Part shown: one piece after another, positions 16,661 through 43,237 of the stretch
Layout of the letters: every line of letters starts with the position of its first letter
Position numbering within the stretch: the stretch's first letter is position 1
Assembly: GCA_963793305.1 (NCBI GenBank)
Contig: CAWBZV010000005.1
Coordinates: 1,280,001 to 1,344,000, forward strand
Length of the DNA stretch: 64,000 nt
Reading direction: 5' to 3'
Source: an uncultured Gemmatimonadales bacterium
GTDB lineage: Bacteria > Gemmatimonadota > Gemmatimonadetes > Gemmatimonadales > Gemmatimonadaceae
The notes under the pieces: generated by a model
Databases searched by the model: none
Told to the model about the DNA's origin: nothing
The model's input: the letters and a program-made list of their open reading frames with translations, nothing else
Translations under genes and position numbers: made by a program

Positions 16661-16685
16661 CGCCCGCGTACTAGGTTGGGCCGCT

Positions 16686-17918: not shown

Positions 17919-17939
17919 GCCCTCGCGCATACTATCGGC

Positions 17940-24487: not shown

Positions 24488-24940
24488 GTGAGCAAGCAGA
24501 GCGCAGGCGTACTGCTGTTTCGCCACCGAAACGGGGTGCTCGAGGTCTTTCTCGTGCACCCGGGCGGCCCCTTTTGGGTCCGTAAGGACGACGGCGCGTG
24601 GTCGATCCCAAAGGGTGAGATCAACCCCGGCGAAGAGCCGCTCGCGGCCGCGCGGCGCGAGTTCTCCGAGGAAACCGGCCTCACGCTGGACGGAGACCTC
24701 CTCCAGCTCGCGCCGGTGAAACAGAAGAGCGGCAAAGTCGTGCATGCGTGGGCGGTGCGCGGCGATGCCGATCCGGCGACGATCACGAGCAACACGTTTA
24801 CGTACAACGGCCGCGAATATCCCGAGGTCGACCGCGCCGCGTGGTTCAATCTTGCGGAAGCGCGCCGGAAGCTGTTGCCAGGTCAGGTGCCGCTGCTCGA
24901 TGAGCTCGACCGCCGTGTGTCTGCGGAAGAAACGCCGTGA
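24488..24940 (+). CDS. NUDIX hydrolase
   Basis: SAGVLLFR, HPGGPFW, WSIPKGE...AARREFSEETG Nudix box, YPEVDRAAWF. Confidence 0.92.
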   Translation: MSKQSAGVLLFRHRNGVLEVFLVHPGGPFWVRKDDGAWSIPKGEINPGEEPLAAARREFSEETGLTLDGDLLQLAPVKQKSGKVVHAWAVRGDADPATITSNTFTYNGREYPEVDRAAWFNLAEARRKLLPGQVPLLDELDRRVSAEETP

Positions 24941-26069: not shown

Positions 26070-28411
26070 CTAAGGCGCCGCGCTCGGCTCCAGCACCGTG
26101 GTCCACACGTTGGCGAGGGCGCCCGGGAGCGTCGTCTCCGTCCACGCACCCGCGCGTCTAAACCGCGCGCGGATGGTGGCGCCGACTCCAATGGGTTCCA
26201 GCTTCGTTTGGATCAACGCCGTGATGCGCAGGCGCTTCGTGCTCCGGAATTCGTCGGCGCCGTACCGTTCGTCGACGCCGCTGAGCACGCGGCCAGGAAG
26301 GTCCAACGCGGTGTTCGCGTTGTCGGAGTACCAGAACGTCGGTCGTGCCGCCGAACTGCTCGACGACGCGACGATCCGGCACGAGGTTGGGATCCAGCAC
26401 GCCGGATGGTCCGACGTGATACCCGCGCGGGAGGCGCCCTACCTTCGCGGGAAGCGCAAGCGCGCCGTAGAGCGTCGGAACGAGGAGGATCACGCCGCCC
26501 GCGCACGCGACGAGCGCGCGGAGTGGCCACCCGCGGCGTCGCCACACATCGATGGCGCCGAGCACGGCGACGGGGAGCACCGCGAGGCTCGCTGGCGCGA
26601 CATGTCGCGCGGTCAGATCGGCCGCGAAGCTCGTGAACGTCCAGACGCCGGCGATCGCGACCATGGTGACGACAAACGCCATCACCGCGAGCCGGGCGGC
26701 GGCCATGGCCCGGACCGCCGGCAGGCGTGCGCCATGCGCGATGAGCCACAGGAAGACGAGACCGGGCGCCACGCCAAAGTAGGACGACGCGCGCAATCGG
26801 CTCAGCAGTCCGTCCGCGTCGGCTACGGCGAGGGCAGGATCGGCGATCAGCGCCGCAAACGACTCCACGTGTGGATAGAACCCGGCTTGCGCGGTCACAC
26901 TGTTCACCGCGACGCCGAAGTGCGCATTGAGAAGAGACAGCGCCACCACAGGAATCGCCGTCCCCGCGGCGACCCACCAGAGGTTGCGCCACGAGCGCTC
27001 AACGCCGAGCCACGCGAGGGCGCCGAGCCCGAGAAAGAACAGCGAGTACTTGACGATATACGTGACGCCGAGCGCGAGCCCCAGACCGAGCGCGCCTCGA
27101 CGAGCACCGCGCAGCGCCAGAAGGAGGACCCACGGTGCAACCGCGTAGCTCAGGGTGTCTTGCGTGAACAGGTAGAGACCGTTGCTCGCCTCGTGCAAAA
27201 AGGGGAGGGCCGCCGCGACGATCGAGAGGACCCACGTCGGCGCCTCGAATTGCTCGAACCATCGCAACCATCCAATGGAACCGGCGATCAGGCACAGACC
27301 GGCCACGATGCGGAGAGCGGCGCCGAGCGACAGGCCGGCGGCGAGCCATGGATACGCGGCGAGCTGCGGGCCGGGCGGACGCGAAACGATCCAGAATGCG
27401 TTGATCGCGAGAGAGGTCGGCCGGGTCGGGCTGAACGACCGTGTTCAACGTCGGCGACTGGCCGGCGACGTACTGAACCGCCCCGCGGAGCTGCGCGGCC
27501 TGGTCGCCGTTGATGCCTTGCGGTACACGACCCATGATCGCGAAAACCAGCGCCAGCGCGACGATCATGATCACCCAGGGCGCGCGCCCCGCAATCGCGA
27601 CCTTGGTCGCTCTCCAGAACCACCGTGCCCGGAGCAGCGCCAACTGCTTGGCCTGGTGCGCGCGACGTCGCCGGGCAATCGCGCGCAGCCGCGGATCCGA
27701 CAGACACGCCACCATTTTGCCATACAACCGTATCCACCCTTCGGCGGCGCCAATGAGGTTCTCTGCATATCGGGGATCGCCGCCTTTGTCGCGCACCGAC
27801 ACGAGGGCCTCGGCGATCGCGGTGACCTCGCTCCGCATCGCGAGGCGCAGCCAGAGGTCCTGGTCTTCGTTCACCGCCAATGCTTCGTCGAATCCACCGA
27901 CCTCCTCGATCAGGCTGCGCTCGGCCATCACGGTCGGTGTGCCGACGATGGCGTCCAACGTCAGCAGTCGCTCGACGATGTCGCCATCGTATGCGATGCG
28001 CGGTTTGTATCGGGCATCGGACACCGCCCGCCCTTCGGTATCGATGATCGACAGCGCCGTGTAGCTCCACCGGCGCGTCGGCGCCGATTGCATCGCGCGC
28101 ACCTGCACCGCGAGCTTGGTCGGCGCCCACACGTCATCGGAATCCATGAATGCGATGTACCGACCCCGCGCGACGCCAATGGCCGCGTTCCGTGCGATCG
28201 ACGGCCTGCCCGAATGCAGAAGCCACAGCACCCGGACGCGCGGATCGCCGAGGCTCCGCAGGTACGCCCGCGTCTCCTCTCCGGAGCCATCGTCGGCGAT
28301 GATGAGCTCCCAGTCAGCGTACGTTTGCCGCAGCACCGAGTCGATGGCCGCGGGCAAGAACTCCAGGCGATTGAACGCCGGCAGGATGACGGAGATGAGT
28401 GGCGTGGTCAC
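26070..28411 (-). CDS. GT2 glycosyltransferase fused to a multi-pass membrane (GT-C-like) region (about 779 aa after removing +1 bases at 27394-27399 and 26334-26340)
   Basis: ISVILPAFN, ADDGS, FMDSDD GT2 motifs read in frame into TM segments. Three track ORFs join at the CGCATC and GACGTC error sites. Confidence 0.65.
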
Positions 28412-29784
28412 CGGTGAGCGTCGTCGTGGTCCAAGCGCTCGAGGATGACTTGGGTCGCGAATGCGTAGCCGGCCGCATTGAGGTGCGTCCAGACATGCGG
28501 CGGCTGCCAGAACCGGTCATCCGAGTCGGCGGTGAACCGGGCCTGGAGGTCGATCACCGCAATCCCGCGGCGATCGAGCGCCTGAATCAGCGTATCGCGC
28601 GCCGGTCGGCAGGTCTTGGTTCCGATCTCCTCCCCCCACAGGGGCAGATGGACGAAGTAGAATCGCCCACCCCACTGCTCGACCTCCGAGCGGGCCTGCG
28701 CGATCAGATCGGTGAACTGCTGCAGCCGATCCGGCGCGCATGGCAGGTCTCCCACACGGTCCCATTCGGGCACGAGCATCGGAAAAGCCTTCTCTCGCAG
28801 ATCGCGCAGCGTGAGAAACCGCCTCATCTTCCCGCGCCACGGATGCGCCTGGGCCGCGGCGGTCGTCGCAATGTTCCGGTCTTGGTACGATCGCATCATC
28901 GCATCGACCTCGCTTTGCCGGGTGAGCAGCGACTGTCGAAAACCTGGCACGCGGTACTGCCCGAGAAATCCGCGGGCGCGCTCCGACTCGAAGTCCATGA
29001 AGTCGTTGCCGGGGAAATAGAGCCACACGACGTGGCGCGGCCGGCGCGGCGCCGCAAATTCCCGGAGGATGGCGAGCTCGGAGAGCGGGCCGTTCCCGTT
29101 CACGCCCAAGCTGATCGCCGAACGGGTGCGGCGCATTCGCGCGGCGATGTTCTCCGTCGTATCCACGCACGCGCCCTGCGCAAACGAGTCTCCGATGAGG
29201 ACGACGTCGGGCGCCGGCTCGCCCCACGCGCCCGGCGGGTTATTGAACCCATGATCGTCGCTCCGGTAGGTCGTGAACGCACCGCCCTCGTTGCAGTACA
29301 CGATAAACGTGTTGGCGATGCCGGCGAGCGGATACGGATGTCCGGCCGTCCGGTCGGCGCGATACGCCGCATCCAGCTCCAAGCGCTCTGTAGCGTAGTA
29401 CGCCGGGACACCCAGGGCGCGGAAGTCGAGGACGACGTTGAGCCGCGAACGCGGATCCCACGCGCCCCGCAGGCCGGCCGGCGGTGGCAGATGGCGCGGG
29501 TCGTCGCGCGGTCTAAACGCGAGCGCCGCGTCGGCAACGTAGAACGCCAGCATCGCCGCGCCGATGCAACTGGCGATGATCGCGCGGCGATCGCGTCGCA
29601 TGAACAGCGAGGCAATGGCCACGATGCCGACGATCGCCGGACCGATATCGTATCCGGCCGCGAGTGCGGGATATCGCGCCGGGATATGGGTGGCCGCGAA
29701 GATGACGATGCGGATGGCGCCGAGCGCCGTGACCACGAGTACGGCGATGGCGATCGCGTCCACGAGTCGATCAGTCCGGCGCAA
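28408..29784 (-). CDS. Membrane-anchored SGNH/GDSL-family protein
   Basis: Three N-terminal TMs; IGDSF, GNGP, GNDF, THLNAAG blocks. The start may instead be GTG 29763. Confidence 0.82.
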   Translation of the reverse strand: MRRTDRLVDAIAIAVLVVTALGAIRIVIFAATHIPARYPALAAGYDIGPAIVGIVAIASLFMRRDRRAIIASCIGAAMLAFYVADAALAFRPRDDPRHLPPPAGLRGAWDPRSRLNVVLDFRALGVPAYYATERLELDAAYRADRTAGHPYPLAGIANTFIVYCNEGGAFTTYRSDDHGFNNPPGAWGEPAPDVVLIGDSFAQGACVDTTENIAARMRRTRSAISLGVNGNGPLSELAILREFAAPRRPRHVVWLYFPGNDFMDFESERARGFLGQYRVPGFRQSLLTRQSEVDAMMRSYQDRNIATTAAAQAHPWRGKMRRFLTLRDLREKAFPMLVPEWDRVGDLPCAPDRLQQFTDLIAQARSEVEQWGGRFYFVHLPLWGEEIGTKTCRPARDTLIQALDRRGIAVIDLQARFTADSDDRFWQPPHVWTHLNAAGYAFATQVILERLDHDDAHR

Positions 29785-31537
29785 ACGCGCCTCGCGCCAT
29801 CTGGGCCTCGGACACGACCTGGTCGGTCTTCCGGAGAAAGCAGTTGCCGATGCTCATCGCTTCGATCGCCGTCGCCATGAAGCATCGGAACGCATCCTCC
29901 GGCGTGCACACGATCGGCTCGCCGCGGACATTGAAGCTGGTGTTGACCAGCACGGGGCAGCCGGTTCGCGCTCCGAATGCCGTAAGCAGCGCGTGGAACC
30001 GCGGGTTGGTCGCCTGATCGACGGTCTGGATGCGCGCCGAGCCGTCGACATGCGTAACGGCTGGGATGTCCGATCGGTGTTCAGGCCGAACCGACGCGAC
30101 GAGCAGCATATACGGGCTCTCGACGTCGAGCTCGAACCACTCGGCGGCGCACTCGGCCAACACCGCGGGTGCGAAAGGCCGGAACGACTCCCGAAACTTG
30201 ACCTTGAGATTGAGCGTCGACTGCGCGTTGGGGTCGCGCGGGTCGGCCAGGATCGACCGGCTGCCGAGCGCACGGGGACCGAACTCCATGCGTCCTTGGA
30301 ACCACCCGAGCGCGTCACGTTGGACGAGACGCTCGACGCTGCACGCAACGAGCGCCTCGTCGGAGAGCGTCGTATATCGAGCGCCGAGCACCCCGAGCCG
30401 TCGCTCGATCTCCTCTTGAGTGAATTCCGGCCCCAGCAACGCCCCTTGCATGGCATCGCCAGTCGGAATTGGCCGCTCGGTCGACGCCTGATACGCGATC
30501 AGGGCGGCGCCGATCGCCCCGCCGGCGTCGCCCGCCGCCGGCTGAATCCAGAGCCGCTCGAACCGACCATCGCGCAAGACCGCGCCATTGGCGACGCAGT
30601 TGAGCGCGACACCGCCGGCGAGGCACAGGTTCCGCTGGCCGGTCCGCGCGGCCACATCGCGCGTCATGCGCAGGATCGCCTCATCGAGCACGGCCTGAAT
30701 GGACGCCGCGAGGTCGCGATGTCGCGAGAGGAGCGGCTCATCCGGCCGGCGCGCCGGCGCGCCGAACAGCGCATCGAACGCGCCATTCGTCATGCGCGAT
30801 CCGGCGCAATAGTCGAAATACGAGAGGTCGAGACGGAACGATCCATCGTCCTTGAGATCGATCAAGTGATCCCGGATGAGCGCCGCGTACCGCGCCTCGC
30901 CGTACGGCGCCAGGCCCATGACCTTGTACTCGGCCGAGTTCACGCGAAATCCGAGGTAGTGCGTGAACGCGCTGTACAGGAGCCCGAGCGAGTGCGGAAA
31001 GTCGATCTGGCGAAGAATGTCGAGCGTCGGCCGCCGCCCGATCGCCACGGAGGTCGTGGCCCACTCGCCGACGCCATCCACGGTGAGCACGGCCGCTTCG
31101 TCGAAGGGTGACGGAAAGAACGCGCTGGCGGCGTGACTCGCGTGGTGTTCGGTGAACCGGAGACGCGCGTCCCAGTCGACGCGCGGATCGAGGGCGCGGA
31201 GCTCGCGGCGCAGGCGTGAACGGAGAAACAGCTTGTCACCCAACCAGACGGGCATGGCCCGCGCGAACGAGCCCAGGCCGCGTGGAGCCACCGCGAGATA
31301 CGTCTCGATCAGGCGCTCGAACTTGAGGAAAGGCTTCTCGTAATACGCGACGAGGTCGAGATCGGCCGCCCGGATGCCAGCGTGCTCCAGACAGAACGCG
31401 ATGGCGTGTCGAGGAAAGTCGGGATCGTGCCGGAGCCGCGTGAACCGCTCTTCTTGAGCGGCCGCCACGATCACCCCATCGTCGATGAGCGCGGCCGCAC
31501 TATCGTGATAGTACGCCGAGATCCCGAGGATCTTCAC
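29771..31537 (-). CDS. O-carbamoyltransferase (NodU/CmcH/SxtI family)
   Basis: ILGISAYYHDSAAAL, EHHASHAASAF, EYKVMGLAPYG, GGVALNCVANG, EFGPRALG, NTSFNVRGEP. Confidence 0.95.
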   Translation of the reverse strand: MKILGISAYYHDSAAALIDDGVIVAAAQEERFTRLRHDPDFPRHAIAFCLEHAGIRAADLDLVAYYEKPFLKFERLIETYLAVAPRGLGSFARAMPVWLGDKLFLRSRLRRELRALDPRVDWDARLRFTEHHASHAASAFFPSPFDEAAVLTVDGVGEWATTSVAIGRRPTLDILRQIDFPHSLGLLYSAFTHYLGFRVNSAEYKVMGLAPYGEARYAALIRDHLIDLKDDGSFRLDLSYFDYCAGSRMTNGAFDALFGAPARRPDEPLLSRHRDLAASIQAVLDEAILRMTRDVAARTGQRNLCLAGGVALNCVANGAVLRDGRFERLWIQPAAGDAGGAIGAALIAYQASTERPIPTGDAMQGALLGPEFTQEEIERRLGVLGARYTTLSDEALVACSVERLVQRDALGWFQGRMEFGPRALGSRSILADPRDPNAQSTLNLKVKFRESFRPFAPAVLAECAAEWFELDVESPYMLLVASVRPEHRSDIPAVTHVDGSARIQTVDQATNPRFHALLTAFGARTGCPVLVNTSFNVRGEPIVCTPEDAFRCFMATAIEAMSIGNCFLRKTDQVVSEAQMARGAFAPD

Positions 31538-31543
31538 ACGTCC

Positions 31544-31693
31544 CTAGAACAGGGAGTAGATGAATGGCGCGATGGCCGCGCCCTGCGTGAGGATGAGGAC
31601 GGTCCCGAGCACGACGAGGAACGTGACCGCCGGCCAGATCCAGTACCGACGCCTCACGCGAAGGAATTGCCAGAACTCGATGAGAGACCGCAT
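31544..31693 (-). CDS. SxtK/DUF5989-like small membrane protein (49 aa)
   Basis: Manual translation MRSLIEFWQFLRVRRRYWIWPAVTFLVVLGTVLILTQGAAIAPFIYSLF; typical APFIYxLF end. Below the ORF-track cutoff. Confidence 0.88.
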   Translation of the reverse strand: MRSLIEFWQFLRVRRRYWIWPAVTFLVVLGTVLILTQGAAIAPFIYSLF

Positions 31694-31694
31694 G

Positions 31695-32114
31695 TCAATA
31701 AGGTCGGGTCAGCGATTCGCGATCGACGACGTGTGAGGGGCGCTCGATCCAATAGGTCGGCTCGAGGGGATCCCGCCGCAAGCGAAGTATATCGATCCTG
31801 CGCCACCGCATGATGATCGCGGTCGGCGTCAGCAGGAGAAAGTACGCGATCGCCAGCACGACCGGACCGGTGACCCGCTGCATGATGTGTCCGAGTCCGG
31901 TCCACACCTTATTCGGCTGGTGGAGCCAATGCGGCGTCGCGAGACTCACCGCGGCGAGCAGCGCGGCCAGTGCCAGCGGCCATATGCGAACGTCCGCCCG
32001 TCGGACGAGCGGGAAGAGGGCGAGACAGACCAGAGCGCCGGCGATCGTCAGGCCGAATTGCCGATCAGACGGTCCTCGTGGAGGCGGCGGGACAATAGGA
32101 TCGAGCACGTTCAT
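31695..32114 (-). CDS. SxtJ family membrane protein
   Basis: SDRQFGL, two TMs, W..LG..., YFLLLTP, DILRL, TYWIER; ATGA coupling. Confidence 0.85.
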   Translation of the reverse strand: MNVLDPIVPPPPRGPSDRQFGLTIAGALVCLALFPLVRRADVRIWPLALAALLAAVSLATPHWLHQPNKVWTGLGHIMQRVTGPVVLAIAYFLLLTPTAIIMRWRRIDILRLRRDPLEPTYWIERPSHVVDRESLTRPY

Positions 32115-33028
32115 TGGGCTCGCCGAACCGACTGGAGGGTGGCGCGGACCGCGGTCCTGGCGGCCCGCCAATACCACGCCGGATAGGCGGGCCGTGTCGC
32201 ACCCTGGAGCAACGCCCGGCAGGCAGCGCCAGAGCGCCCGGCGCTCGCGTGCAGCCCGGCCAGCACGAGCGTGCTGTCGGCGCGCCGTCGACGCGCGATC
32301 GCGCGCAACGACGGGGCAGGGAGCGACACGGCGTGCTTGCCATACAGGCGCACCCACCCTTCGTATGCGCCGACCCGATCGACACTGTAGTGCGCGTGGC
32401 CGCCGGTGCGCACCGTGGTGAGCGGATCGGCGACGACGGCGACCGGGCTCCGCACGGCCAGCCGGATCCACATATCGTAGTCCTCGCAGAACCGCTGGCC
32501 CTCGTCGAACCCGCCGACTTCGGCGATGAGGCTGCGTTCGGCGAGCACGGAGGGCACGGCGACATGCGCCTCGAGTCTCAACAGGCGCTCGACGATGTCG
32601 CCGGTGTATGCGACCCATGGCGCGAACGTCCCGCTCGGGACGGGCTGGCTGTCAGGGCCGACGATGACCAGAGCAGTGTAGCTCCAGCGGCAGCCGGGTG
32701 ACGCCTTGAGGACGTTGAGCTGCACGGCGAGCTTGGTGGGCGCCCAGCTGTCATCCGAATCCAGGAACGCGAGATAGCGGCCGCGCGCACGCCGGATCGC
32801 CGTGTTCCGGACGACGGCGGGAATGCCCGAATGCGGTAACCAGAGGACCGTGATGCGCGGGTCGTCGAGCGTGCGGAGGTACGCCTTCGTCTCGTCTCCG
32901 GATCCGTCGTCGGCGATGATGAGCTCCCAGTCGGCGTGCGTCTGCCGGAGCGCCAATGCGATGGCCACCCGCAGGCAATCCATGCGATCATACACCGGAA
33001 GGATGATCGAGACGCTCGGGTCGGTCAC
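32111..33028 (-). CDS. GT2 family glycosyltransferase
   Basis: VSIILPVYD, ADDGSGD, FLDSDD, GGFDE, EDYDMW; GTGA coupling. Confidence 0.92.
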   Translation of the reverse strand: MTDPSVSIILPVYDRMDCLRVAIALALRQTHADWELIIADDGSGDETKAYLRTLDDPRITVLWLPHSGIPAVVRNTAIRRARGRYLAFLDSDDSWAPTKLAVQLNVLKASPGCRWSYTALVIVGPDSQPVPSGTFAPWVAYTGDIVERLLRLEAHVAVPSVLAERSLIAEVGGFDEGQRFCEDYDMWIRLAVRSPVAVVADPLTTVRTGGHAHYSVDRVGAYEGWVRLYGKHAVSLPAPSLRAIARRRRADSTLVLAGLHASAGRSGAACRALLQGATRPAYPAWYWRAARTAVRATLQSVRRAQ

Positions 33029-33972
33029 AGGAGCTCGATGTCCCGCGCGTACACGCATGGGCCCGCCATGTGGCAAAACGCCGGCCCATCGCTCATCAGC
33101 GTCTGTCGCACCACGTCGGTCACGAAAAACGTATGGGAGTGGATCGTGTGCACGGCCTGAATCTCGAGCTCGCGGACGAACAAGGCGTCCCGCGGCACGG
33201 GCAGCCCGAACTCCGGCGATACCCTGGTGGCGAACGGCAAAGCAGCCCAGTCGACGCACATCCGCTCGTGATGCTTGCCGAGTGCGTAGGCGTGCTGCTT
33301 GAACGCCGCCGGGAGCGCGCTGACGGCCAAACGTCGGCTGTGCGCCATGAGCGGAATGGCCGGACTCGTCGACCGGAGCGCCATCAAGAATTGTCCCGAC
33401 GAGACCGGGCCGATGAGATCCATCGGAAAGAGATCGCTCGCTCCGCCATCAATCACCGAGATCAGCGAGACTGGTCGCGGGCGCATGTAATACACGTTGA
33501 GCGCACGAAGGGCGCTCGGCGTCATGCGAAAGTTGTACGGATTGGGCTTCTTCTTTCGGCGATACCACCAGTCGCGGCCTTCGCGGGCGCGCTCCTGGAT
33601 GGGGCCGAGGCATCGATTGGTCGATCGCGTGACCTCGCAGATCCACAGGCGATGCCGTTCGGACGGCAGATCGATCGACTGACGTGCCCGCAACATCAAG
33701 CGCCCGCGTACCTGCGTGCCGTCATCCCAATCCTGCAGTGTCAGCGCGAGGGGGGCGGCGAGCACGATTTCCGGCGCGAGCGACGTCTCCAAGCAGAGGC
33801 CGATAGTGAGTGGCCGCAAAGAGACCGGGGCGTGATCGCAGCTCACATCGCGACTCTCGCCGAGCCCGTCCAAGATGACACGAGTGACCCGGCTCGGGTC
33901 TTGGAGCCCGACCGTGGCGTGCGCTTGCCAGGGTGCGCCCCCGAACAGGACGCGCTTGAGGAGTTGCTTCAT
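33025..33972 (-). CDS. Flavin-reductase-like (split-barrel) protein
   Basis: RPVSLISV...FPMD and C-terminal HSHTFFVTDVV resemble the flavin-reductase-like fold; coupled on both sides. Confidence 0.55.
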   Translation of the reverse strand: MKQLLKRVLFGGAPWQAHATVGLQDPSRVTRVILDGLGESRDVSCDHAPVSLRPLTIGLCLETSLAPEIVLAAPLALTLQDWDDGTQVRGRLMLRARQSIDLPSERHRLWICEVTRSTNRCLGPIQERAREGRDWWYRRKKKPNPYNFRMTPSALRALNVYYMRPRPVSLISVIDGGASDLFPMDLIGPVSSGQFLMALRSTSPAIPLMAHSRRLAVSALPAAFKQHAYALGKHHERMCVDWAALPFATRVSPEFGLPVPRDALFVRELEIQAVHTIHSHTFFVTDVVRQTLMSDGPAFCHMAGPCVYARDIELL

Positions 33973-34625
33973 GGCGCGCGCTGGAATCCGAGAAAGGTGA
34001 ACTGCCCGAGCAGGCCACCACGACGCAGCACCAGACGGAACGCAGGAGCGGCGGCGCGCGCGATGGCTCCGACGTAGTGGCGATAGCTCGCGGCGTCGCT
34101 GCCCTCGACGGTCAGCATCGCCGTCCCCCAACTCCTCGAGAGGGCGCGCCACCACCAGCCGCAGCGCAGATCGCGCCAATAGAATGGATTGATCACGCTG
34201 ACGATAACCTGGCCCCCGGGCGCCACCGCTCGCGCAAAGCGCCCGAAGAGGTCGCCCAGGTCGGGCACCAGATTGAGCACGGCAAAGTTGGCGACGATCG
34301 CGTCGACCTGGCCATCGAACGGGACGGTGAGTGGGGTCACCACCCCGTCCGCAATCTCCCGCGAGCAACGAATGGCGAGCTGGTCGATCATCCGTGGTGA
34401 GGGATCGTACGCGATGACGGTGAAGCCGCGGCTGGCGTACCACGCGGCATCGAGGCCGGTGCCGCACCCGAAGTCGAGTACGCGCGATGCTGGTGGGATG
34501 CGGTCCGCGACGAGCGTGCGGAAGGCATCGCGAAATCGGGCGTTCCGCGGCTCGCGATCCATCGTCGCGTCGTACCGCGCGGCCTGCGCATCGTAGTACG
34601 CGGCAATCCGCGCGGCGTCAATCAT
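33969..34625 (-). CDS. Class I SAM-dependent methyltransferase
   Basis: VLDFGCGTG motif I; DPSPRM; APGG. Confidence 0.9.
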   Translation of the reverse strand: MIDAARIAAYYDAQAARYDATMDREPRNARFRDAFRTLVADRIPPASRVLDFGCGTGLDAAWYASRGFTVIAYDPSPRMIDQLAIRCSREIADGVVTPLTVPFDGQVDAIVANFAVLNLVPDLGDLFGRFARAVAPGGQVIVSVINPFYWRDLRCGWWWRALSRSWGTAMLTVEGSDAASYRHYVGAIARAAAPAFRLVLRRGGLLGQFTFLGFQRAP

Positions 34626-35559
34626 GGATCACCCGCGGGACGCCCGCGACGATGACGAGCGCAACGTCGGCCTCCGTTGCTTCCCAGACCGGGCGGCGGA
34701 ACACCGCGAGGTCCGCTGGCGCGCCGCACTCGAGCGATGGCTCCGGAAGTCCCAATCGCCGCGCCGCCGTGCGGCCGACCGCATCGAGCAGCCGCTCGTC
34801 GGACATGAGTCCCGACGTCCTCGCGAATCTCAGCTCATCGAGTAGAGACCCGGCGCCGGTAAGCAATGAATCGCTGCCGAGCAGTATGTCTATCCCTGGA
34901 GCCAAAAGATCCGCCGGCACAGTCGCGTCGAATAAAAACGCATTGGATGAAGGGCACCAGATGACCGCCGCTCCGCTCCCCCGTAGCCGCCGCACACCAT
35001 CGTCGTCGGTTCCGACCACGTGGACGGCCAGCAGGGACGGCGTCAAAAGACCCCGCCGATCCAGTTCGCGGACCTCGTCGGCCGATCGTTCGTCGACCCC
35101 TTCGGCGAGATGCATTGTCCACGGCCCCTCGCGTCTGCCGTCCGGCGGCTCGATGCCGAGCGAGTGCACGTTCGGCACCCGAGCAACCCGAACGGGGAAT
35201 TCCGGGTCGTCGAACGCCGGCTCCCACGCATCGTGATGCACCACGGTAGTCACGCCGGCAGCCAGATTCTTCCACGCGCCCGTCTGCAGCGCTTCCCGAC
35301 GCGGCACAGCGCGCGCCCGCTCGATCTCATGGGCGAAGCGCACGTGGATGTCGTCCCCCCACTCGTACGCGTTGGCATACGGCGGACAACCGAGCCGACC
35401 GTAGTGGTTCCGGTGTAGGTGATCGTGCGCGTTGATCAATCCGGGCCGCAACTCGCCATCCGGGATACGGAGCACACGATCGATCCGTCCCGTGGGCGGC
35501 ACGATGATCCCGTCCTCGATGCCAACGGTGGCATTCCGCGCCTCGATGACGAGCTTCAC
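34618..35559 (-). CDS. Metal-dependent amidohydrolase/deaminase family protein
   Basis: PGLINAHDHL, AGVTTVVHH, HLAEG, WCPSSN, LGSDS, GAPADL. Confidence 0.9.
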   Translation of the reverse strand: MKLVIEARNATVGIEDGIIVPPTGRIDRVLRIPDGELRPGLINAHDHLHRNHYGRLGCPPYANAYEWGDDIHVRFAHEIERARAVPRREALQTGAWKNLAAGVTTVVHHDAWEPAFDDPEFPVRVARVPNVHSLGIEPPDGRREGPWTMHLAEGVDERSADEVRELDRRGLLTPSLLAVHVVGTDDDGVRRLRGSGAAVIWCPSSNAFLFDATVPADLLAPGIDILLGSDSLLTGAGSLLDELRFARTSGLMSDERLLDAVGRTAARRLGLPEPSLECGAPADLAVFRRPVWEATEADVALVIVAGVPRVIHD

Positions 35560-36224
35560 CGCCGCGCCTCGCGCCGATAGGCGAGCACCAGCACGAGCTT
35601 GAGCCCCCGCTGCGCCTCATACACGCCGAGTCGATCGGCCGTCGCGTAGAACGGCCGAATGAGCGGGCCGACGATGCCGTCATGCCGCACGGTTCTGGCG
35701 AGGCCGGCTCGCACGGCCGCCGCCCGGTGCGCCGCATCGTCATGCACCCAATGCTCGATCTCATGCGTCACGCCATCCGCGTCGCGGAACGTGCGTCGAT
35801 GCCCGGCGGCGACGGCGTCAGAATGGAAGTCGGTGACGACGACCGTCCCACCCGCCCGGCACACCCGCGCGAGCTCGGCGTACGTCGCGTCGAGCTCGCG
35901 GATGTGCCCGATGACGAGCCGACACCACACGACATCGAACGACGCAGTCGCAAATGGCAGCGCGCGCAGATCGGCCGCGGCCACGGGCTCCACGCGATCT
36001 GGTGATTGCAGCATCTCCGGTACCGCGTCCACGCCGACGGCAAATCGCGCCGGGATCCCCCGCATGCGCCTCCCAACACCACACCCTGCATCCAGCAGTC
36101 GCCGGCCAGCAACCGGCACGGTCAGCGCCCCGACGAGCCGGTCCTCGAGGAAGCTGACGGCAGTCTCCGCCTCATAGCACGGAGCCCACAGCCGATACCC
36201 CTCCCGACTCGACAACATGCTCAC
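35556..36224 (-). CDS. Class I SAM-dependent methyltransferase (BioC-like)
   Basis: GYRLWAPCY, LLDAGCGVG, LPFATASFDVV, TDFH. Confidence 0.9.
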   Translation of the reverse strand: MSMLSSREGYRLWAPCYEAETAVSFLEDRLVGALTVPVAGRRLLDAGCGVGRRMRGIPARFAVGVDAVPEMLQSPDRVEPVAAADLRALPFATASFDVVWCRLVIGHIRELDATYAELARVCRAGGTVVVTDFHSDAVAAGHRRTFRDADGVTHEIEHWVHDDAAHRAAAVRAGLARTVRHDGIVGPLIRPFYATADRLGVYEAQRGLKLVLVLAYRREARR

Positions 36225-37726
36225 CGTGCGGCTTCTCGCAGATGTCCGTACGCCTGCCGATCGTCGGGCACTCGCTGGGCCCACCGTCGCACCGTGCGCA
36301 ACGCCCGAGGGTGGGAGAAGTTGCCACGCGCCCACCGTCCACGCGCCAGCACTTGCCCGAGCGTCCGCCCCCACCCTTGGACCCTGGTATCATGCACCGA
36401 CGGAAAGCGGCTCTTGAGCACCAGGGTGAAATCTTCGACTCGTTCTTTCAATCGCCGGTCGAGCCATGGCACGTGTGGATCTTCGTGCGTCATCCACGAC
36501 ACCCACTCCGGCTGCGTCCACTCGTCCAGCGTGGTCGGTGTTCCGCTGAGCGCATCGACGTTGCCGTACGTCCCGCGTCGCTGCGGGGTCGGCGTATAGA
36601 AGTACGAGATCAGCTCCATCGCCGGATTGACGGTCTTGAGTCGCCGAATGAACGTCAGCGTGTTCTCGATCTCCCGCTCGGGATCATCTGGATCGCCGAA
36701 CACGAACGAGAACTCCGGGATGATCCCGTGTATCCGCGACCGTGCGGCGACCTCGAGCACCTGCGCCGTCGTGATTTTCTTGTTCATCTTCTGCAGCACC
36801 GCGTCCGATCCCGACTCGGCCCCGCAAAACACCATGGTCAGCCCCGCGCGCTTGAGGAGCCGCCAGGTGTCGTCCGAGAATCGCAGGAGCGCATCGACTC
36901 GCGCTTCGCACCACCACCGCAATCCGAGCGGCGCGATCCGCTCAGCAAATTCTCTCGCGTGGTCTTCGCCGACAAAAAAGTTATTGTCGTAGAAATGCAC
37001 GGAATCCATCCCGTGTCTTCGCGCCAGCATTGCCAGATGCCGTACCGTTCGCGCCGGCGACTGCTGTCTCTCCCGGCTCCCGAACACCGAGATGACGCCG
37101 CAGAAGTTGCACCCGTACGGACACCCGATCGACGCCTGATACACACCGGATCGCCGTCCGAGAAATGTGGGTCGGAGATACGTCTCGATCGGGATCTTAT
37201 AGTAGGCCGGCTCGGGCAACGCATCAGGCCCGACCCACCGCCGCTCATGCCCGATCCAATGGTTGCCGTCCGGCTCCCGGAATCCGAGACCCGCCACGGT
37301 TTTTGGATCGCGATGGCCTGCGAGCACGTCGAGCAGCTCGACGAACGTCTGTTCGCCCTGCCCGCGGACGATCCAATCGACGTCCGGCGAGTTGAGCACG
37401 GGCGTCGGGTAGAGGCTCGGGAAGTTGCCACCCCACACGATCGGCAGATGCGGATGCCGCGCCTTGAGCGCGTGCGCCAACGGCACCGCGCTCACCAGCT
37501 GCGGCCCGGGCATCACGCTGAACGCGACCACCGTCACGGGGTCCCCCGTGCCACGGCGCCGATCGATATGCGTCTCGATCTCGGCCAATACGTCGATGTC
37601 GGGCAGATTCCCATCGACGATCTCCCAGCTCACGCCTTCGGGAAGCGCCGCGCCGACGGCCATCACCGACAGCGGGAAGCGCCGGTTCTTCGGGCGTGTC
37701 GCCCTCGGGTTGACAAAGACAATCAT
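36221..37726 (-). CDS. B12-binding domain radical SAM enzyme
   Basis: N-terminal cobalamin-binding region (FPLS, IVWGGNFPS), CPYGCNFC, FYDNNF, GAESGS. Confidence 0.93.
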   Translation of the reverse strand: MIVFVNPRATRPKNRRFPLSVMAVGAALPEGVSWEIVDGNLPDIDVLAEIETHIDRRRGTGDPVTVVAFSVMPGPQLVSAVPLAHALKARHPHLPIVWGGNFPSLYPTPVLNSPDVDWIVRGQGEQTFVELLDVLAGHRDPKTVAGLGFREPDGNHWIGHERRWVGPDALPEPAYYKIPIETYLRPTFLGRRSGVYQASIGCPYGCNFCGVISVFGSRERQQSPARTVRHLAMLARRHGMDSVHFYDNNFFVGEDHAREFAERIAPLGLRWWCEARVDALLRFSDDTWRLLKRAGLTMVFCGAESGSDAVLQKMNKKITTAQVLEVAARSRIHGIIPEFSFVFGDPDDPEREIENTLTFIRRLKTVNPAMELISYFYTPTPQRRGTYGNVDALSGTPTTLDEWTQPEWVSWMTHEDPHVPWLDRRLKERVEDFTLVLKSRFPSVHDTRVQGWGRTLGQVLARGRWARGNFSHPRALRTVRRWAQRVPDDRQAYGHLREAAR

Positions 37727-38490
37727 GCGATACGCTCGAAGTGATACAGCACGTGATCGCCGAGCGGCGCCAGCGGCCGCGAGACGACGCGGTCGATGGC
37801 TTCCATCGCGCCCAGCAAGTGCGGATGTCCAGAGATCCACGGCTCAGCCGCGCTCGGCGGCACGGCGACGCCAATGCCAAGGCGTCGGACGAGCCGGAAC
37901 CAAGGCCGCATGGCGCTCACGATCTCCCATGGCCGGTGATAGCGAACCACGAAATGTTGCCCGCCGAGGCGCGCCGGCGCGTCGTGGTGCAAGCGTCGCA
38001 CGGCGGCCCGGAGGTCGCGCCGTGCGAGTTGCACGACGACCTCGCCAGGTGAGCACGTGCCGAACAAGACGAGGAGCGCTTGGCCCCCAGGTCGCACCAA
38101 TCGCGCGAGCCCTCGGGCGACGGGGACCAGATCGGTGACGCAGTTCAGCCCCGCGAAGTTCGAGAACGCACCGTCGAACGCCGGTTGATCCAACTCATCG
38201 AGCCGCTCGGCCGGCAGCACGGCGGCCGATGCGCCGAGCCGTTCTTGCGCGATGCGGACCATCGCCGGTGCCGCGTCGGTGAGAAAGACGTGTCGCCCGT
38301 GCGCGGTGAGCCATTCGGCGTCGACTCCCGTTCCGCCGCCCACTTCCAGCACGCGCGATCCCGGCGGGAATGCGCCGAGCAGGGCGGCACGCACGGCGCG
38401 GCGCTGCGCGGCAACGCTGAGCCATGCCCCGTAGCGTTCGTCGAAGCGATCGGCGATCGCGTCGAAGGCGAGAGCAGCCGCGGTCGTCAT
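37723..38490 (-). CDS. Class I SAM-dependent methyltransferase
   Basis: VLEVGGGTG, FDGAFSNFAGLNC, RPGG. Confidence 0.9.
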   Translation of the reverse strand: MTTAAALAFDAIADRFDERYGAWLSVAAQRRAVRAALLGAFPPGSRVLEVGGGTGVDAEWLTAHGRHVFLTDAAPAMVRIAQERLGASAAVLPAERLDELDQPAFDGAFSNFAGLNCVTDLVPVARGLARLVRPGGQALLVLFGTCSPGEVVVQLARRDLRAAVRRLHHDAPARLGGQHFVVRYHRPWEIVSAMRPWFRLVRRLGIGVAVPPSAAEPWISGHPHLLGAMEAIDRVVSRPLAPLGDHVLYHFERIA

Positions 38491-39839
38491 GCCGAGCGGC
38501 CGCTGGCGAGCTCAGTCCACCGCCCGACGTCTTCCTCGCCGGTCGTGACTTCGTGGTGCAACGCGTCCCGCAACTGGCGATAGAAGTTGGTGTTGTATGT
38601 GCCGTGGAAGAGCATGGCGAGATCGTCGGTATGCTCCCAATTCCGCTTCGCCCCGAGCTCGGCCACTACGTTCTCGTGGAACTTGGTCCCAGGCAACGGA
38701 TACGAGACCGACACGCCGATCTCGTCGGGTCGTTCCTCGCGAATGAGATCGCGGGTCAACAGGACGTCGTTCCACGTCTCCGACGGATAGCCGAGCTGGA
38801 TGAACCAGCAGGCGCGAATACCCCGCGCTTTGAGCGCCCGGGTGGCCGCGCGGGCTTCTTCGACGCGCGTGCCCTTATCCATGGCGTCGAGGATTTTCTG
38901 GGATCCCGACTCGACGCCGAGCCAGACCTCTTCGGCTCCGGCCGCCGCCAACGCACTGACGACATCCGGCCGCATAAGGTTCACGCGTGACTGGATCATG
39001 AACGGCGTCTCGGCTCCTTCGCGCGCGACGGCGCGCGCGAAGTCCGCAATCCACTCCGCCGTCAACCCGAAGATGTCATCGGCGAACCAGATGTGATCGG
39101 CGCCGATCTCGTTCTTGATGTGGCGCATCTCGGCCGCGACGGCGCCGGGAGACCGTTGCGTGTACCGCCGCCCGAACACGGGCTTCGCGCACCAGTTGCA
39201 TCCATATGGGCAGCCGCGGGACGTCACCATGTTCCACGAGAAGCGACCATGGTGATCGACCCACACGTCACGGTACGCCTCGACATCGATCAGGTCCCAC
39301 GCCGGGAGCGGCAGCACGTCGAGATCGCGGAGGGCATGCCGCGAGGGCGTCGTCGTTCCGTCCGGCAGGATCAACCCAGGCACCTCGGTGAGTGCCGCGT
39401 TCGGATCGCTCACCCAGATGTCGGCGAGCTGCAGCACAGCCATTTCGCTCTCGCCGAAGAGCACCGCATCGGCGCCGGCCGCGAGATAGATCGCGGGACG
39501 GTCCGACGAGTCCGACCCATTGACGACCACGCGGGCGCCGCGAGCGCGCGCCGCGCGAATCATCGCCAGGGTCGCCTCGCGCGTGCGGGTCGTACACATC
39601 TTCGTGAGGTAATTGAAGTTGTCCTCGACGATGGCCACGATGTCCGGTCGCACGTCGTCGAGCATCGCCGTGAACGCGTCCACGCCCGATGCCAGCATCG
39701 CATCGAAGAACGCGACGGGATGCCGTCGTTGGCGCAAGAGCCCGGCGGTCAGCAGTGTCGCCAGCGGCGCGTACGGCTTCATGCGCGCGAGCTGTTTCGG
39801 GTCGTTGCGGAGAAAGTACGAATGCGCGATCAAAATCAT
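38487..39839 (-). CDS. B12-binding domain radical SAM enzyme
   Basis: YAPLA...GESE, SRGCPYGCNWC, FADDIF, GVESGSQKILD, YPLPGT. Confidence 0.93.
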   Translation of the reverse strand: MILIAHSYFLRNDPKQLARMKPYAPLATLLTAGLLRQRRHPVAFFDAMLASGVDAFTAMLDDVRPDIVAIVEDNFNYLTKMCTTRTREATLAMIRAARARGARVVVNGSDSSDRPAIYLAAGADAVLFGESEMAVLQLADIWVSDPNAALTEVPGLILPDGTTTPSRHALRDLDVLPLPAWDLIDVEAYRDVWVDHHGRFSWNMVTSRGCPYGCNWCAKPVFGRRYTQRSPGAVAAEMRHIKNEIGADHIWFADDIFGLTAEWIADFARAVAREGAETPFMIQSRVNLMRPDVVSALAAAGAEEVWLGVESGSQKILDAMDKGTRVEEARAATRALKARGIRACWFIQLGYPSETWNDVLLTRDLIREERPDEIGVSVSYPLPGTKFHENVVAELGAKRNWEHTDDLAMLFHGTYNTNFYRQLRDALHHEVTTGEEDVGRWTELASGRSA

Positions 39840-40841
39840 GACACCCTCTGGGCAGCGTCGAGCATCGTGACGAGATGCGGCACGGCGCTCGATGGATCGT
39901 TGGAGACGGCGAGCTCCCATCCGCCGACACCCGCCAAAGCGCGAGCGCAGGCGGCGAGCCGCGTGGGGAAACGATCGAATCCGGGTTCCGGTTCCCGAGC
40001 CAGCGCGGCCGCGACAGTCTCCGGTCGCGCTCGCGTCAATACGGTCTCGTCACTGGTTCGCGTCAGTAAGCACACTACCGCGCGCTCCGCGCGCAGTGCC
40101 GCATCGCTCGGGCGATCGAGCGCGACGGATATCTTGCACTTCCCGCTCGGCAGCCTGACCGGATCGAGCGCCGCCAGCGTCGGAAATCGTTCTCTCGCAT
40201 CCGGCAGAAGCGAGATGCGCCGTCCACGCGTCGGCGGCCCCCACACGGTCATCCGAGGCCGCAACTGCACCCACACGGTGTCATCGCTCACGACGGTGAG
40301 GCCTGCTAGAATGCGCCGCATACGCGAGTGTGCTCTTGCCCGCGCCGCTGGGCCCCAACAACAACACGATCGCCCCACCATGCGACACCGCTGCCGCATG
40401 AACGGGGTGGCGATCGTAGTGATCGACGATGGCGTAGGTCAGCGCCTCGAGGATGGTCTGTCGAAACTCCATCTTCCGAGCGACTAGCGCACACGGCACA
40501 AAGCCAAGGGCCTGGCGTCGAATCGGATCGGCCACGGCGACGCGATCGGCGCCGTGCAGAATGAGTCGAGACGCGTCGGGGGACCACACCCGTGCCGCCG
40601 AGGACGGCGCCGCGTGCTCCCCGTGCACCACGATGCGCACGAGCAGCGGCTTTCGTCGCCACGGCTTGCTCCCGGCAACCGCATCGCCGAACGCGTCCGC
40701 CGCGGCGTCGAGAACAGCGTAGCTGTTGCTCTCGAAGCGTACCGGCACGCCCAACACACTCGTGGTCAGCACCTGATCCGTCACGATGTCGCGACCGAGC
40801 GGGTCACGACTCTCCGAGAAGTCGATGCCGCAGTGGTTCAT
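39836..40841 (-). CDS. HPr-kinase-like P-loop protein (about 334 aa after removing a +1 base at 40309-40314)
   Basis: VHAAAV...GPSGAGKSTLAYAA-HLAGLTVVSDD after correcting CGCATTC to CGCATC. Confidence 0.85.
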
Positions 40842-41966
40842 GATTGCGCTCCGCGACCTTCGGCCAACACGACTTCGTCGTAGAGCTCCTCGAACATCCG
40901 CGCCGTCACATCGGCGTTCTCCGTCAGGGCGCGCTCGTGCGCCGCGGTCGCGAGTCGCATCCGATAGTCGTCGTTCGCGAGGACCGAGGCCATCGCGCAC
41001 GCCATCGAGTCGGCGTCGCCGATCGGTACGGCGACCGCCGCCTCCGGCGCCCATTCCGCGACATGACCGACGCGCGTGCCAACCGTCGGTAGGCCGGCCA
41101 CCGCTGCCTCCAGCACGGCCGCCGGCCCCGCTTCGTGGCGCGAGCTCATGAGGTGCACATCCGCTTGGGCCGCGAGCGTGTGGAGATCGTTATATCGGAG
41201 CTTGCCGTGAAACGTGACGCAACCGGAGAGCCCCAACTCCTGCGCGGTCTGCTGGAACGTCGCCGCCAAGCGTGTCGTAGCCGGCAATGTCGAGATGGAA
41301 CGGCACGTCCATGCGGGAGAGCAACGACGCCGCGCGGAGCAGCATCCCTTGGTCTTTCACCCGATTGAGGTCGGCAATGTGCAGCAGGCGCGCCGGTTGG
41401 GTCATGTCGCGCGGCCGCGGTGGCGCCGGGGACCAGCGGTCGAGCGCGATGCCGAGTGGGATCCGACGGGCGGCGATGCCCAATGCGGCCGCGGTTTCGG
41501 CCATCGGCGCGCTGGTGACCGTGACGCGTTGCGCACCAGCGACGGCCAGTCGCAGGACGAGACGACCGCGCGCCGTGCGTCGCTGTCCGTACCCGATCTC
41601 GGGGATCGACACCATCTCGGCGCCCGTCATGTGCAGCACGACCGGAACGCGAAAGCGCCAACCGGCGATCGCCGCGGTCGATCCCGTGCCTGATACCCAG
41701 AACGCGTGAAAGACATCGAATGGCCGCCTCCGATGCTCGTCTGCCAGCACGGCGAGTGCGCGCCGTCGCCGGCCTGCGCCGCCGCCGACATCGTGGACGG
41801 TCGCGCCCAGGAGCTCGTATCGGCCGATCGCCGGTGTTGGCGTCAACGCGAGCACCACCACGGCGTGTCGGCGCGACAGGCGCTCGATCAGTGCGAGCAG
41901 CACGGGGATCACCCCGTCCGTTCCGCTCCGATCAACGCCCCCGGGCACGAACAGCGCGATACGCAT
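40838..41966 (-). CDS. GT4 family glycosyltransferase (about 375 aa after removing a +1 base at 41255-41261)
   Basis: MRIALFVPGG, DVFHAFW, NRVKDQ, SRHEAGPAAVLEA...TRVG; frames join at GGD-VQQ. Confidence 0.88.
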
Positions 41967-41995
41967 CAGCGGCGGGGTCTCTTAGCTTTCGCCCG

Positions 41996-43237
41996 ATGGA
42001 CGACCTGTCCGAGAGCGAGATTGTCGCCATCAACCGCCGCGCGCAGACGTTCGAGCGCACGGGCGATCCGGGGGTTCTCTGGCCCGAGGTCGACGAACCG
42101 TCTCGGCTCGCCGCGCTGGCTGAGATCGAGCGTTGCGTCGCCGTCGTTCTCCGTGGCGGGTCGAGTGCGCTCGATGGCGACCCCGCGGCGATAGGGATTG
42201 CCGGTCTCACTTCCGGGACGGGCCCTGGGCTCGGCCTGTGGGCCGCGACTGGCCGTGTGACGACCAGTCCCGAAATCGAGAGAGTGTTGGCGCGCCACCT
42301 CGCTCATGGGCGCGCACGCGCGGAGCGTCTCGATCGCGGCCTCGGCAATGCGTTGGACACGCTCGCGGCTGCGGGCGTATCGTGCACGGTCCTCAAGGGC
42401 ATGCATACCGCGCGCCGCTACTATGCCGAGCCCGGCGCCCGGCCCATGGGCGACATCGATCTGTTCATTCTCCCGCAGTCGCGCCGCGCCGCCGAGCACG
42501 CGCTCGCCAGCAACGGGTGGCGGAGAGGAGAGCGCCAACGCCGGCCGTACAAGTGCAATTGGCATCCGCCCGGCGTCGATGCGCGGATTCGCGGGCTCGA
42601 TCTCGTGCACACGTGGGACCCATGGAGCGTGGAGCTGCACACGTCCCTGGATCGCATTTTCGCCCCCGGTCGCCTGGCGCGACTGCCCTTGAGAGCCGGC
42701 GACGACGAGCCGTGGACGATGGCCGGAAGACCGGTGCGCGTACTCGTTCCGCCGATGCTCATCGCGTACCTCGCGGCGCACGCCTCGGAGGAGTCCCACG
42801 CGACGCGACTGCTGCGCGTGGTGGAGCTCGTGCTCGTGGCCCGAGACGAGACGGCGCGCGGCCGCCTCGCGTGGCGCGACGTGAGCGCGCGTCTGGCGGC
42901 GACCGATAGCGCGGGCTTCGCTTTTCCCGCGCTCGCTTTCGCCGAGCGACTCGTGCCCGGCACGGTCGACCCCACGGCGCTCGCCGAGTGTTCGGCGGCC
43001 GCGGGTCCGCGCGTGCGCGCCCTCGTCGAGGCTGACAGCGCCGCCGACAGCGCGCCGCTGGAGCGCGTGCGCGTGGCCGAGAAGTTCATGTGGTCGCGCG
43101 GCCCCGCCGACACTGCTCGCCGACTCGGCCTCATGCTGTGGCCCAAGGCGAGCGGATCGTTCGGCGATATGGTGCGCACGTACGCCCGGCGCGCCTATCG
43201 GCTCTGCCATGGCCGCTTTACCGGGTCGCGAGAATAA
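41996..43237 (+). CDS. Uncharacterised nucleotidyltransferase family protein
   Basis: VLKG...YY...RPMGDIDL, VELH; divergent from the operon with only 29 bp between starts. Confidence 0.85.
   Translation: MDDLSESEIVAINRRAQTFERTGDPGVLWPEVDEPSRLAALAEIERCVAVVLRGGSSALDGDPAAIGIAGLTSGTGPGLGLWAATGRVTTSPEIERVLARHLAHGRARAERLDRGLGNALDTLAAAGVSCTVLKGMHTARRYYAEPGARPMGDIDLFILPQSRRAAEHALASNGWRRGERQRRPYKCNWHPPGVDARIRGLDLVHTWDPWSVELHTSLDRIFAPGRLARLPLRAGDDEPWTMAGRPVRVLVPPMLIAYLAAHASEESHATRLLRVVELVLVARDETARGRLAWRDVSARLAATDSAGFAFPALAFAERLVPGTVDPTALAECSAAAGPRVRALVEADSAADSAPLERVRVAEKFMWSRGPADTARRLGLMLWPKASGSFGDMVRTYARRAYRLCHGRFTGSRE

Follow-up and report, generated by a model that had tools for sequence, protein, structure and literature searches.

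A widespread radical-SAM cassette joined to a carbamoyltransferase block in a Gemmatimonadales operon

The question raised by this locus is whether a long run of coupled genes serves a single pathway, and what that pathway might make. The window analysed is a stretch of 64,000 nucleotides from an uncultured Gemmatimonadales bacterium (assembly GCA_963793305.1, contig CAWBZV010000005.1). Within the window, positions 26070–43237 hold 15 minus-strand genes and a divergent nucleotidyltransferase gene, which an initial annotation had read as one 17-kb pathway for a heavily tailored glycoconjugate. The operon is real, and it is a composite. It comprises a widespread and uncharacterised core, with an optional methyltransferase–flavin-reductase pair and a GT2 glycosyltransferase, onto which a common carbamoyltransferase block has been grafted at the level of this genus.

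The core cassette and its distribution

The core extends from 43237 to 34618. It begins with a PF14907 nucleotidyltransferase (NT, 41996–43237, plus strand; Pfam 89.5 bits), whose start lies 29 bases from that of a GT4 glycosyltransferase at 41966 (GT4, 40838–41966), the spacing originally described. From GT4 the genes continue on the minus strand as an HprK-like P-loop kinase (HK, 39836–40841), a radical S-adenosylmethionine (SAM) enzyme with a degenerate B12-binding-like domain (RS1, 38487–39839), a class I SAM methyltransferase (MT1, 37723–38490), a B12-binding radical SAM enzyme (RS2, 36221–37726), a second class I methyltransferase (MT2, 35556–36224) and the deaminase-type amidohydrolase with which MT2 is paired (AH, 34618–35559). 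The 15 minus-strand genes and their order are those of the initial annotation, and each label has Pfam support (GT4; radical SAM with B12-binding, twice; class I methyltransferase, three times; Amidohydro_1; Flavin_Reduct; GT2, twice; and in the tail SxtJ, DUF5989 for SxtK, Carbam_trans_N/C and Lipase_GDSL_2), which for the kinase consists of weak P-loop hits. The tight joining of the genes was also correctly described. Ten of the 14 internal junctions are 4-base ATGA or GTGA overlaps; the other four are one 8-base overlap and gaps of 1, 6 and 7 bases, the three gaps all lying within the SxtJ–SxtK–carbamoyltransferase–SGNH block. Scans for promoters and terminators gave results at chance level, and a search of the window for RNA elements found only a tRNA.

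Searching GTDB genomes with RS1 gave at least 600 matches, of which the best 80 were retained as loci, many of them on short contigs. RS1, MT1, RS2, MT2 and AH are found together in 24 of the 80, and by their record titles these full cassettes span Gemmatimonadota, Pseudomonadota, Acidobacteriota and Chloroflexota. Gene order conserved across phyla, the check suggested initially, is a property of the core and not of the whole 17-kb run. The closest relatives of RS1 among the matches listed are titled Gemmatimonadota. Where RS1 is at least 57% identical (24 loci), the accompanying genes are MT1 (21), RS2 (20), MT2 and AH (19 each), the kinase (17), NT (13) and GT4 (11). A fourth methyltransferase (X) follows MT1 in 21 of the 24 full cassettes. 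With the host genome labelled G000, five congeners G001–G005 and loci from relatives given L-numbers, X is present in G004 and G005 and lacking in the window and G001. Of 8000 scored, at least 4065 clusters are related to RS2 at E ≤ 1e-100. The full core is present in Sphingomonas sp. UNC305MFCol5.2 (L023), the record of which is titled as an isolate genome. Plasmid, phage and viral-contig collections contained no match to RS1, and carriage by phages or plasmids, with the role in DNA modification that would follow from it, was rejected on this ground.

Three hundred other genomes of the phylum were scanned for RS2, NT and the carbamoyltransferase (CT). RS2 is found in eight and NT in 17. In six of the eight RS2 genomes NT is located within 10 kb of RS2, against 0.45 expected (kin among these genomes are not independent), and the divergent nucleotidyltransferase does belong with the cassette, as proposed. 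The 11 other NT genomes have the arrangement HK–NT–GT4 (extended by GT4c, GT2, GT9 or MFS genes) without RS2; the core itself therefore consists of two nested modules.

After AH the operon continues with a third class I methyltransferase (MT3, 33969–34625) and a flavin-reductase-like protein (FR, 33025–33972). In 49 of 57 loci the gene directly upstream of FR is of the MT3 type, and FR has other cassette genes beside it in 27 of 47 loci (at least 4 kb, outside this genus). MT3 and FR are an optional pair. A cytochrome P450-like gene is located between FR and the radical SAM genes in one cassette (L151:8195-9208).

Some relatives have a different gene next to RS1. This gene (Y) has no Pfam match, contains a G[AS]...DxD motif and is the one directly upstream of RS1 at L037:694-1674 and in 26 further loci. 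It is carried by Chloroflexota and by some Bacteroidota, which lack the window-type NT. At the threshold used Y and NT are mutually exclusive (30 against 28 of 101 loci); L077 has Y together with a distant PF14907 gene that falls below threshold. Comparison of the Y and NT profiles was not significant (E 0.091), and replacement of NT by Y is unproven.

Three genes of the window do not have continuous reading frames. GT4 is broken at 41256, the kinase at 40310 and the GT2–membrane fusion at the end of the operon at 27395 and 26335. Each break is a single extra base that the short-read contigs of near-identical strains do not have (all four in run X1, three each in X2 and X3). Since the short reads lack the extra bases, the corresponding genes are whole in G001 (368, 334 and 767 amino acids, aa, for GT4, kinase and fusion) and two of ten compared flanking genes are split as well, the four breaks are assembly errors. 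A pseudogene reading was rejected for this reason. The two split flanking genes are a hybrid sensor kinase (46205–49370; 1053–1055 aa in G004 and G005) and a gene at 14746–16660.

The carbamoyltransferase block

Downstream of FR, and still on the minus strand, is GT2a (32111–33028), a GT2 glycosyltransferase of a type that other cassette loci also have. It is followed by the add-on block, comprising an SxtJ-family membrane protein (PF19588, 31695–32114), a small membrane protein of the SxtK/DUF5989 family (PF19451, 31544–31693), CT (29771–31537) and a membrane-anchored SGNH (GDSL) protein that is the counterpart of sxtL (28408–29763). CT is an O-carbamoyltransferase of the NovN/GdmN/TobZ type, with a full-length two-domain match in the PDB (E 7e-103); against the NCBIfam NodU family it scores 168 bits, for a cut-off of 1000. 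The run ends with a local add-on, a GT2 (GT2b) fused to a GT-C-like multi-pass membrane domain (26070–28411). The membrane half has no Pfam match and resembles GT-C/PMT_2 proteins in the Atlas, which provides a lead. An Fsr-type MFS transporter gene (24846–26060, minus strand; Pfam) lies 9 bases beyond 26070, where it had been placed. It follows the cassette only in this genus (1 of 80 loci) and is not one of its conserved members.

CT, SxtJ and SxtK are absent from all 80 RS1 loci, and equally from the 48 having at least 9.5 kb downstream, which is enough to reach CT. CT occurs in 74 of the 300 genomes of the phylum; two of these also have RS2, against 1.97 expected, and there the two genes are on different contigs. 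SxtJ or SxtK adjoins CT in 27 of 29 loci (hand count). The 74 genomes include the unpublished G012, and the 29 loci its locus L106. Cassette genes are found in none of 13 wider CT loci. An SGNH gene lies beside CT in six of these by Pfam (37 of 63 neighbours scanned) and in a seventh by tblastn. Among metagenome loci with at least 2.5 kb downstream, CT comes after FR in two of 33, both 91–92% identical to the window FR and near-identical to G001. The congeners differ from one another at this site. G001 has the whole run at 89–91% DNA identity, G004 carries the core on one short contig and the block on another, and in G005 the core lacks the block, FR passing straight into the MFS gene; the one-contig genome G003 holds other genes at the site of the cassette, and G002 gave no match. 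One conserved 17-kb pathway including carbamoylation is therefore not borne out. It had been stated at the outset that sub-blocks that never co-occur elsewhere and are not cotranscribed would refute the proposal; those of the core do co-occur, and the carbamoyl block accompanies the core only in this genus.

Several further features of these genes were observed. In G001, GT2a and SxtJ form a single frame of 440 aa (L007:9185-10507), either a real fusion or a base error; in the window and G004 they overlap by ATGA. L128 contains a 65-aa N-terminal fragment of CT together with an SGNH gene inside an unrelated core cassette (L128:5447-6797), perhaps left over from a second, independent graft. The host has a lone SGNH paralogue of 49% identity (G000:C3:600253-601683; C3:600277) and two further carbamoyltransferases (C5:1112632-1114345 and C3:1218053-1219807), one of them among polysaccharide-type genes.

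Beyond NT the window has a second MFS gene and a gene of the class V aminotransferase family (43499–45834). This MFS gene also borders the empty site in G003, and so is outside the cassette. At the far end a tRNA-Leu(TAA) is followed by a drop in GC to 0.57–0.62 (57654–64000), possibly the edge of an island. GC and GC3 of the operon genes match those of the host, and recent transfer of the operon was rejected.

The core enzymes and a candidate product

Both radical SAM enzymes have the CxxxCxxC motif, as CPYGCNWC at residues 210–217 of RS1 and CPYGCNFC at residues 202–209 of RS2. Against the Pfam cut-off of 32.1 bits the B12-binding domain scores 29.4 in RS1 and 48.3 in RS2. A scan of the host genome gave six B12-binding domains over the cut-off, finding RS2 alone of the two cassette enzymes, and the genome has a cobalamin riboswitch. 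In the RS1 model (pLDDT 94) the fold of the B12 domain is kept. Foldseek places AprD4 at the top, in complex with paromamine (three-domain fold, TM 0.78, 22% identity); the next folds are MgmA (TM 0.66) and TsrM (TM 0.71, at higher rmsd). None of RS1, RS2, AH or the kinase passed a curated NCBIfam family. Among the B12-radical-SAM NCBIfams (BchE, HpnJ, HpnR, PhpK, BzaD, rhizo-twelve and others) the best scores were 98–107 bits, against cut-offs of 251–775. RS2 is a putative cobalamin-dependent C-methylase.

In a PDB search with the kinase family profile, HprK comes first (1jb1, E 2.9e-7). An alignment of 26 relatives has an invariant His, a Walker A motif and a conserved acidic pair, and the scores of these relatives fall far short of the TIGR04352 and TIGR04355 cut-offs. 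In NT, D153 and D155 of a D-x-D motif are invariant in an alignment of 20. A search of the PDB with the NT sequence gave no match; its model (pLDDT 91) has a polymerase-beta fold, most like MenT1 (Z 13.9), followed by ANT(2'')-Ia (Z 11.8), LnuA (9.8) and FKRP (7.6). Nucleotidylation of a small unit had been proposed for this locus. Given the likeness of the fold to ANT(2'')-Ia, LnuA and FKRP, synthesis of a nucleoside diphosphate donor from such a unit is only one possible role. PqqD genes exist in five carriers of the cassette (G000, G001, G005, G271 and G303), far from it; in G000 about 660 kb separates it from the nearest on the same contig. The PF14907 copies that these genomes have outside the cassette adjoin a PqqD gene and the cassette copy does not. 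Because PqqD adjoins only those other copies, the cassette NT is detached from RRE-type peptide systems. One such copy in the host (G000:C5:385734-386793), kept in G001 and G005, is likely part of a separate peptide-type system.

Residues H45, H47, H150, E153, H180 and D230 of AH are invariant in an alignment of 29, and its best PDB matches are deaminases of the methylthioadenosine/S-adenosylhomocysteine (MTA/SAH) type. Among 51 RS2 loci, MT2 with AH is found in 32, MT2 alone in three and a HemK-like methyltransferase in seven, and the HemK-like enzyme never shares a locus with MT2 and AH. It has an NPP[YF] motif and passes TIGR00537; three of the seven loci also hold a PIG-L deacetylase and a GNAT. 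In the available part of PMC9338882, the HemK-family enzyme AprI N-methylates an amino sugar in apramycin. By analogy the exclusion hints that an amine is unmasked and then methylated, but removal of a by-product is a possible alternative. AH and a PNP/UDP phosphorylase are likewise never together (37 against 12 loci); replacement of AH by the phosphorylase as a salvage enzyme for the by-product is confounded by taxonomy, and is unproven.

Taking these families together, we give about an even chance to the core making a methylated, phosphate-linked short glycan decoration. The HprK-like kinase would phosphorylate an acceptor hydroxyl, and the PF14907 enzyme would turn the phosphate into a sugar-bearing phosphodiester. 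There is a precedent in pseudomycoidin, where (in the part of PMC6993621 available) PsmK phosphorylates the terminal Ser and PsmN, with a D134/D136 pair, is needed for the hexose on the phosphate. GT4 and GT2 would add further sugars. RS2 would C-methylate using cobalamin, RS1, closest to AprD4 and with its degenerate B12 domain, would deoxygenate or methylate a sugar, and the class I enzymes would O- or N-methylate. AH would unmask an amine for MT2, or clear SAH or 5'-deoxyadenosine. The product would end on a cell-surface glycan or glycolipid, the assembly genes usually lying elsewhere. In this genus the GT2–GT-C fusion would transfer a sugar onto an acceptor in the membrane, with possible carbamoylation of the core product by the add-on.

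The neighbouring genes in relatives support the glycan direction of the transfer step envisaged initially. They include GT9 (5 loci), Wzx/MurJ flippases, Wzy_C, Wza/Wzz/Bac_transf, polysaccharide pyruvyl transferase, sulfotransferases, PIG-L deacetylase, GT-C and heptose genes. The nearest folds, AprD4 for RS1 and ANT(2'')-Ia, LnuA and FKRP for NT, belong to proteins acting on sugars. Of 39 long RS2 loci, 14 have assembly or export genes nearby, against 5 of 298 host-genome tiles, the window and G001 being counted only for their GT-C; when loci from the query sources, the window and G001 are dropped the number is 6 of 31 (hand recount). GT9 heptosyltransferase-family genes lie beside HK–NT–GT4 in L029, L137, L140, L142 and L143, and the cassette in L201 has next to it (15849–19385) genes for SIS, GHMP-kinase and HAD-transaldolase proteins of the heptose-synthesis type. 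These hint at an acceptor that may contain heptose. The core enzymes have no membrane segments. The window locus has no initiating transferase, flippase, polymerase or exporter of the Wzx/Wzy or ABC-dependent polysaccharide type, and Pfam and NCBIfam scans confirm that PKS, NRPS, terpene, Wzx and Wzy families are lacking among the genes of the operon. Across 94 loci, the 1.5 kb next to the cassette held no conserved small open reading frame (ORF) and no convincing Ser/Gly-rich one; when the whole genome was scanned, just two Gly/Ser-rich ORFs looked secreted and had a good coding score, and neither is linked to the cassette. A precursor of a RiPP (a ribosomally made peptide with post-translational modifications), or a Ser/Gly mini-protein, at the cassette was rejected because none is conserved in the 94 loci.

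A number of observations weigh against the division into core and add-on, or against the glycan assignment. The division is not a clean one. GT2a and GT2b are lineage duplicates that bracket the tail (support 0.998), and both are nearer to the GT2s of other cassettes (44–48%) than to the host's other GT2s (30–34%). Translational coupling is unbroken from GT4 to the fusion, and the tail is retained in G001 and probably in G004 (73% DNA identity, with GT2a–SxtJ–SxtK–CT present). SGNH genes are found inside two unrelated cassettes, L077 and L128, the latter with its CT fragment. The flank test covered CT, SxtJ and SxtK fully, SGNH in part, and did not reach the GT-C fusion, and the genomes are related, so that the counts overstate independence. 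The coupling, the GT2 duplicates, the whole run in G001, the GT2a–SxtJ–SxtK–CT genes of G004 and the SGNH gene and CT fragment of L128 favour a pathway recently assembled within the genus, in which all 15 genes serve one carbamoylated product transferred by the GT2–GT-C fusion. G005, with its core and no block, speaks against this, as do the chance-level co-occurrence of CT and RS2 in the 300 genomes and the many contexts in which the common CT–SxtJ/K block is found. We consider such a pathway a minor but real possibility, and one compatible with a composite origin.

The glycan assignment is weakened by the distance of RS1 from AprD4 (92.2 bits against the NF033070 cut-off of 500, in addition to the low identity), by its second fold match MgmA being a protein methylase, and by the known substrates of the related kinases. 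PsmK and LppK phosphorylate peptide serine rather than a sugar (available parts of PMC6993621 and PMC13381572), and for LppN the available part of PMC13381572 gives no activity or effect in a heterologous host. Moreover, in 25 of the 39 long RS2 loci the flank retrieved contains no gene for glycan assembly or export, and because of this the surface destination is one that we infer rather than observe. In an alternative that takes up the MgmA match, the peptide-serine substrates and the frequent lack of export genes, the kinase would phosphorylate Ser of a protein or peptide encoded elsewhere, with NT and the glycosyltransferases building a glycan on the phosphate and the radical SAM and methyl enzymes tailoring it. 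Such phosphoglycosylation in trans draws further on the PsmN precedent, on HK–NT–GT4 without RS2 in 11 of 300 genomes and on the soluble nature of the core enzymes. It has against it the lack of a suitable small ORF in the 94 loci and of PqqD near the cassette in the five carriers, and the polymer character of the GT9, flippase and pyruvyl transferase genes; we judge it unlikely. More doubtful again is a diffusible natural product, either a glycoside or nucleotide-capped, that would resemble an aminoglycoside or nucleoside and be exported by an MFS or ABC transporter. The nearest characterised folds do come from aminoglycoside pathways and resistance, the distribution is patchy (eight of 300 genomes, and an empty site in G003) and MFS genes flank the window cassette and four NT loci, but scaffold enzymes (cyclitol synthase, aminotransferase, NRPS or PKS) are absent from the genes of the operon, no transporter is conserved, and the plasmid and phage collections gave no match. 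Tailoring of a hopanoid in the manner of HpnJ or HpnR is very improbable. These families are among the weak NCBIfam matches, and squalene-hopene cyclase is encoded in G000, G001 and G005, but the scores are 70–95 bits against cut-offs of 578–650; G303 (100% complete) has the cassette and no cyclase over cut-off, while G003 has a cyclase and no cassette. Hopanoid tailoring was rejected since the cyclase is not in every carrier.

Relation to known systems

All the families are known, and their combination is not described in the literature searched. A description of the gene set or its families was not found in the open-access text covered, in keeping with the original view that the locus matches no characterised pathway. 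The closest parallel to the kinase–nucleotidyltransferase pair is in lasso-peptide and LPP clusters. In PsmK/PsmN and LppK/LppN (PMC6993621 and PMC13381572, in the parts available) an HprK-like kinase and a DxD nucleotidyltransferase occur together, often among glycosyltransferases, as here. In contrast to those clusters, the present locus has no precursor, RRE (PqqD), cyclase, leader peptidase or ABC exporter, and its pair is joined to two B12-type radical SAM enzymes, three or four methyltransferases and a deaminase-like hydrolase.

The add-on block has its counterpart in the saxitoxin cluster. There, in the available part of PMC2684587, sxtI–sxtJ–sxtK–sxtL encode an O-carbamoyltransferase, two hypothetical proteins and a GDSL lipase, and the same four families are adjacent here (31544–32114, 29771–31537 and 28408–29763). 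No other sxt family was found among the genes of the operon, to which the search was confined. Because the block is common in the phylum, both in the frequency of CT and in the adjacency of SxtJ or SxtK to it, it is a generic carbamoylation unit and not a toxin gene set. CT matches NovN, GdmN and TobZ (PDB 9s2t, 7vyj and 3ven) over the full two-domain length.

Two further likenesses concern single enzymes. RS1 shares its three-domain fold with AprD4 (PDB 6fd2) of aminoglycoside tailoring, and the variant cassettes with a HemK-like methyltransferase in place of MT2 and AH recall AprI of the same pathway type (PMC9338882, in part); however, RS1 is far below the AprD4 family cut-off, and the locus has no AprD3-type reductase and no aminocyclitol genes. 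The HxH, HxxE, H and D residues of MTA/SAH deaminases (PDB 4f0r, 4gbd and 1p1m) are invariant in AH, which is about 100–140 residues shorter than these, and is under every NCBIfam cut-off.

The 17-kb form matters less than the core, showing how one genus has had a common carbamoylation block grafted onto its cassette. Two large and unnamed radical SAM families belong to the core, together with an enzyme of the PF14907 family. As the isolate-titled Sphingomonas sp. UNC305MFCol5.2 carries the full core, its product and chemistry are directly testable. A more specific proposal, which we put forward tentatively and think improbable as it stands, is that the core would be a cytoplasmic system, self-contained and not described before, in which the kinase/PF14907 pair familiar from lasso peptides, freed of precursor and RRE, would attach a glycan through a phosphodiester to a protein or surface polymer, with AprD4-like deoxygenation and B12-dependent C-methylation, and that in this genus the glycan would be carbamoylated and handed over by the GT2–GT-C fusion. 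If true, this would represent a novel form of glycosylation in bacteria, used by thousands of soil lineages.

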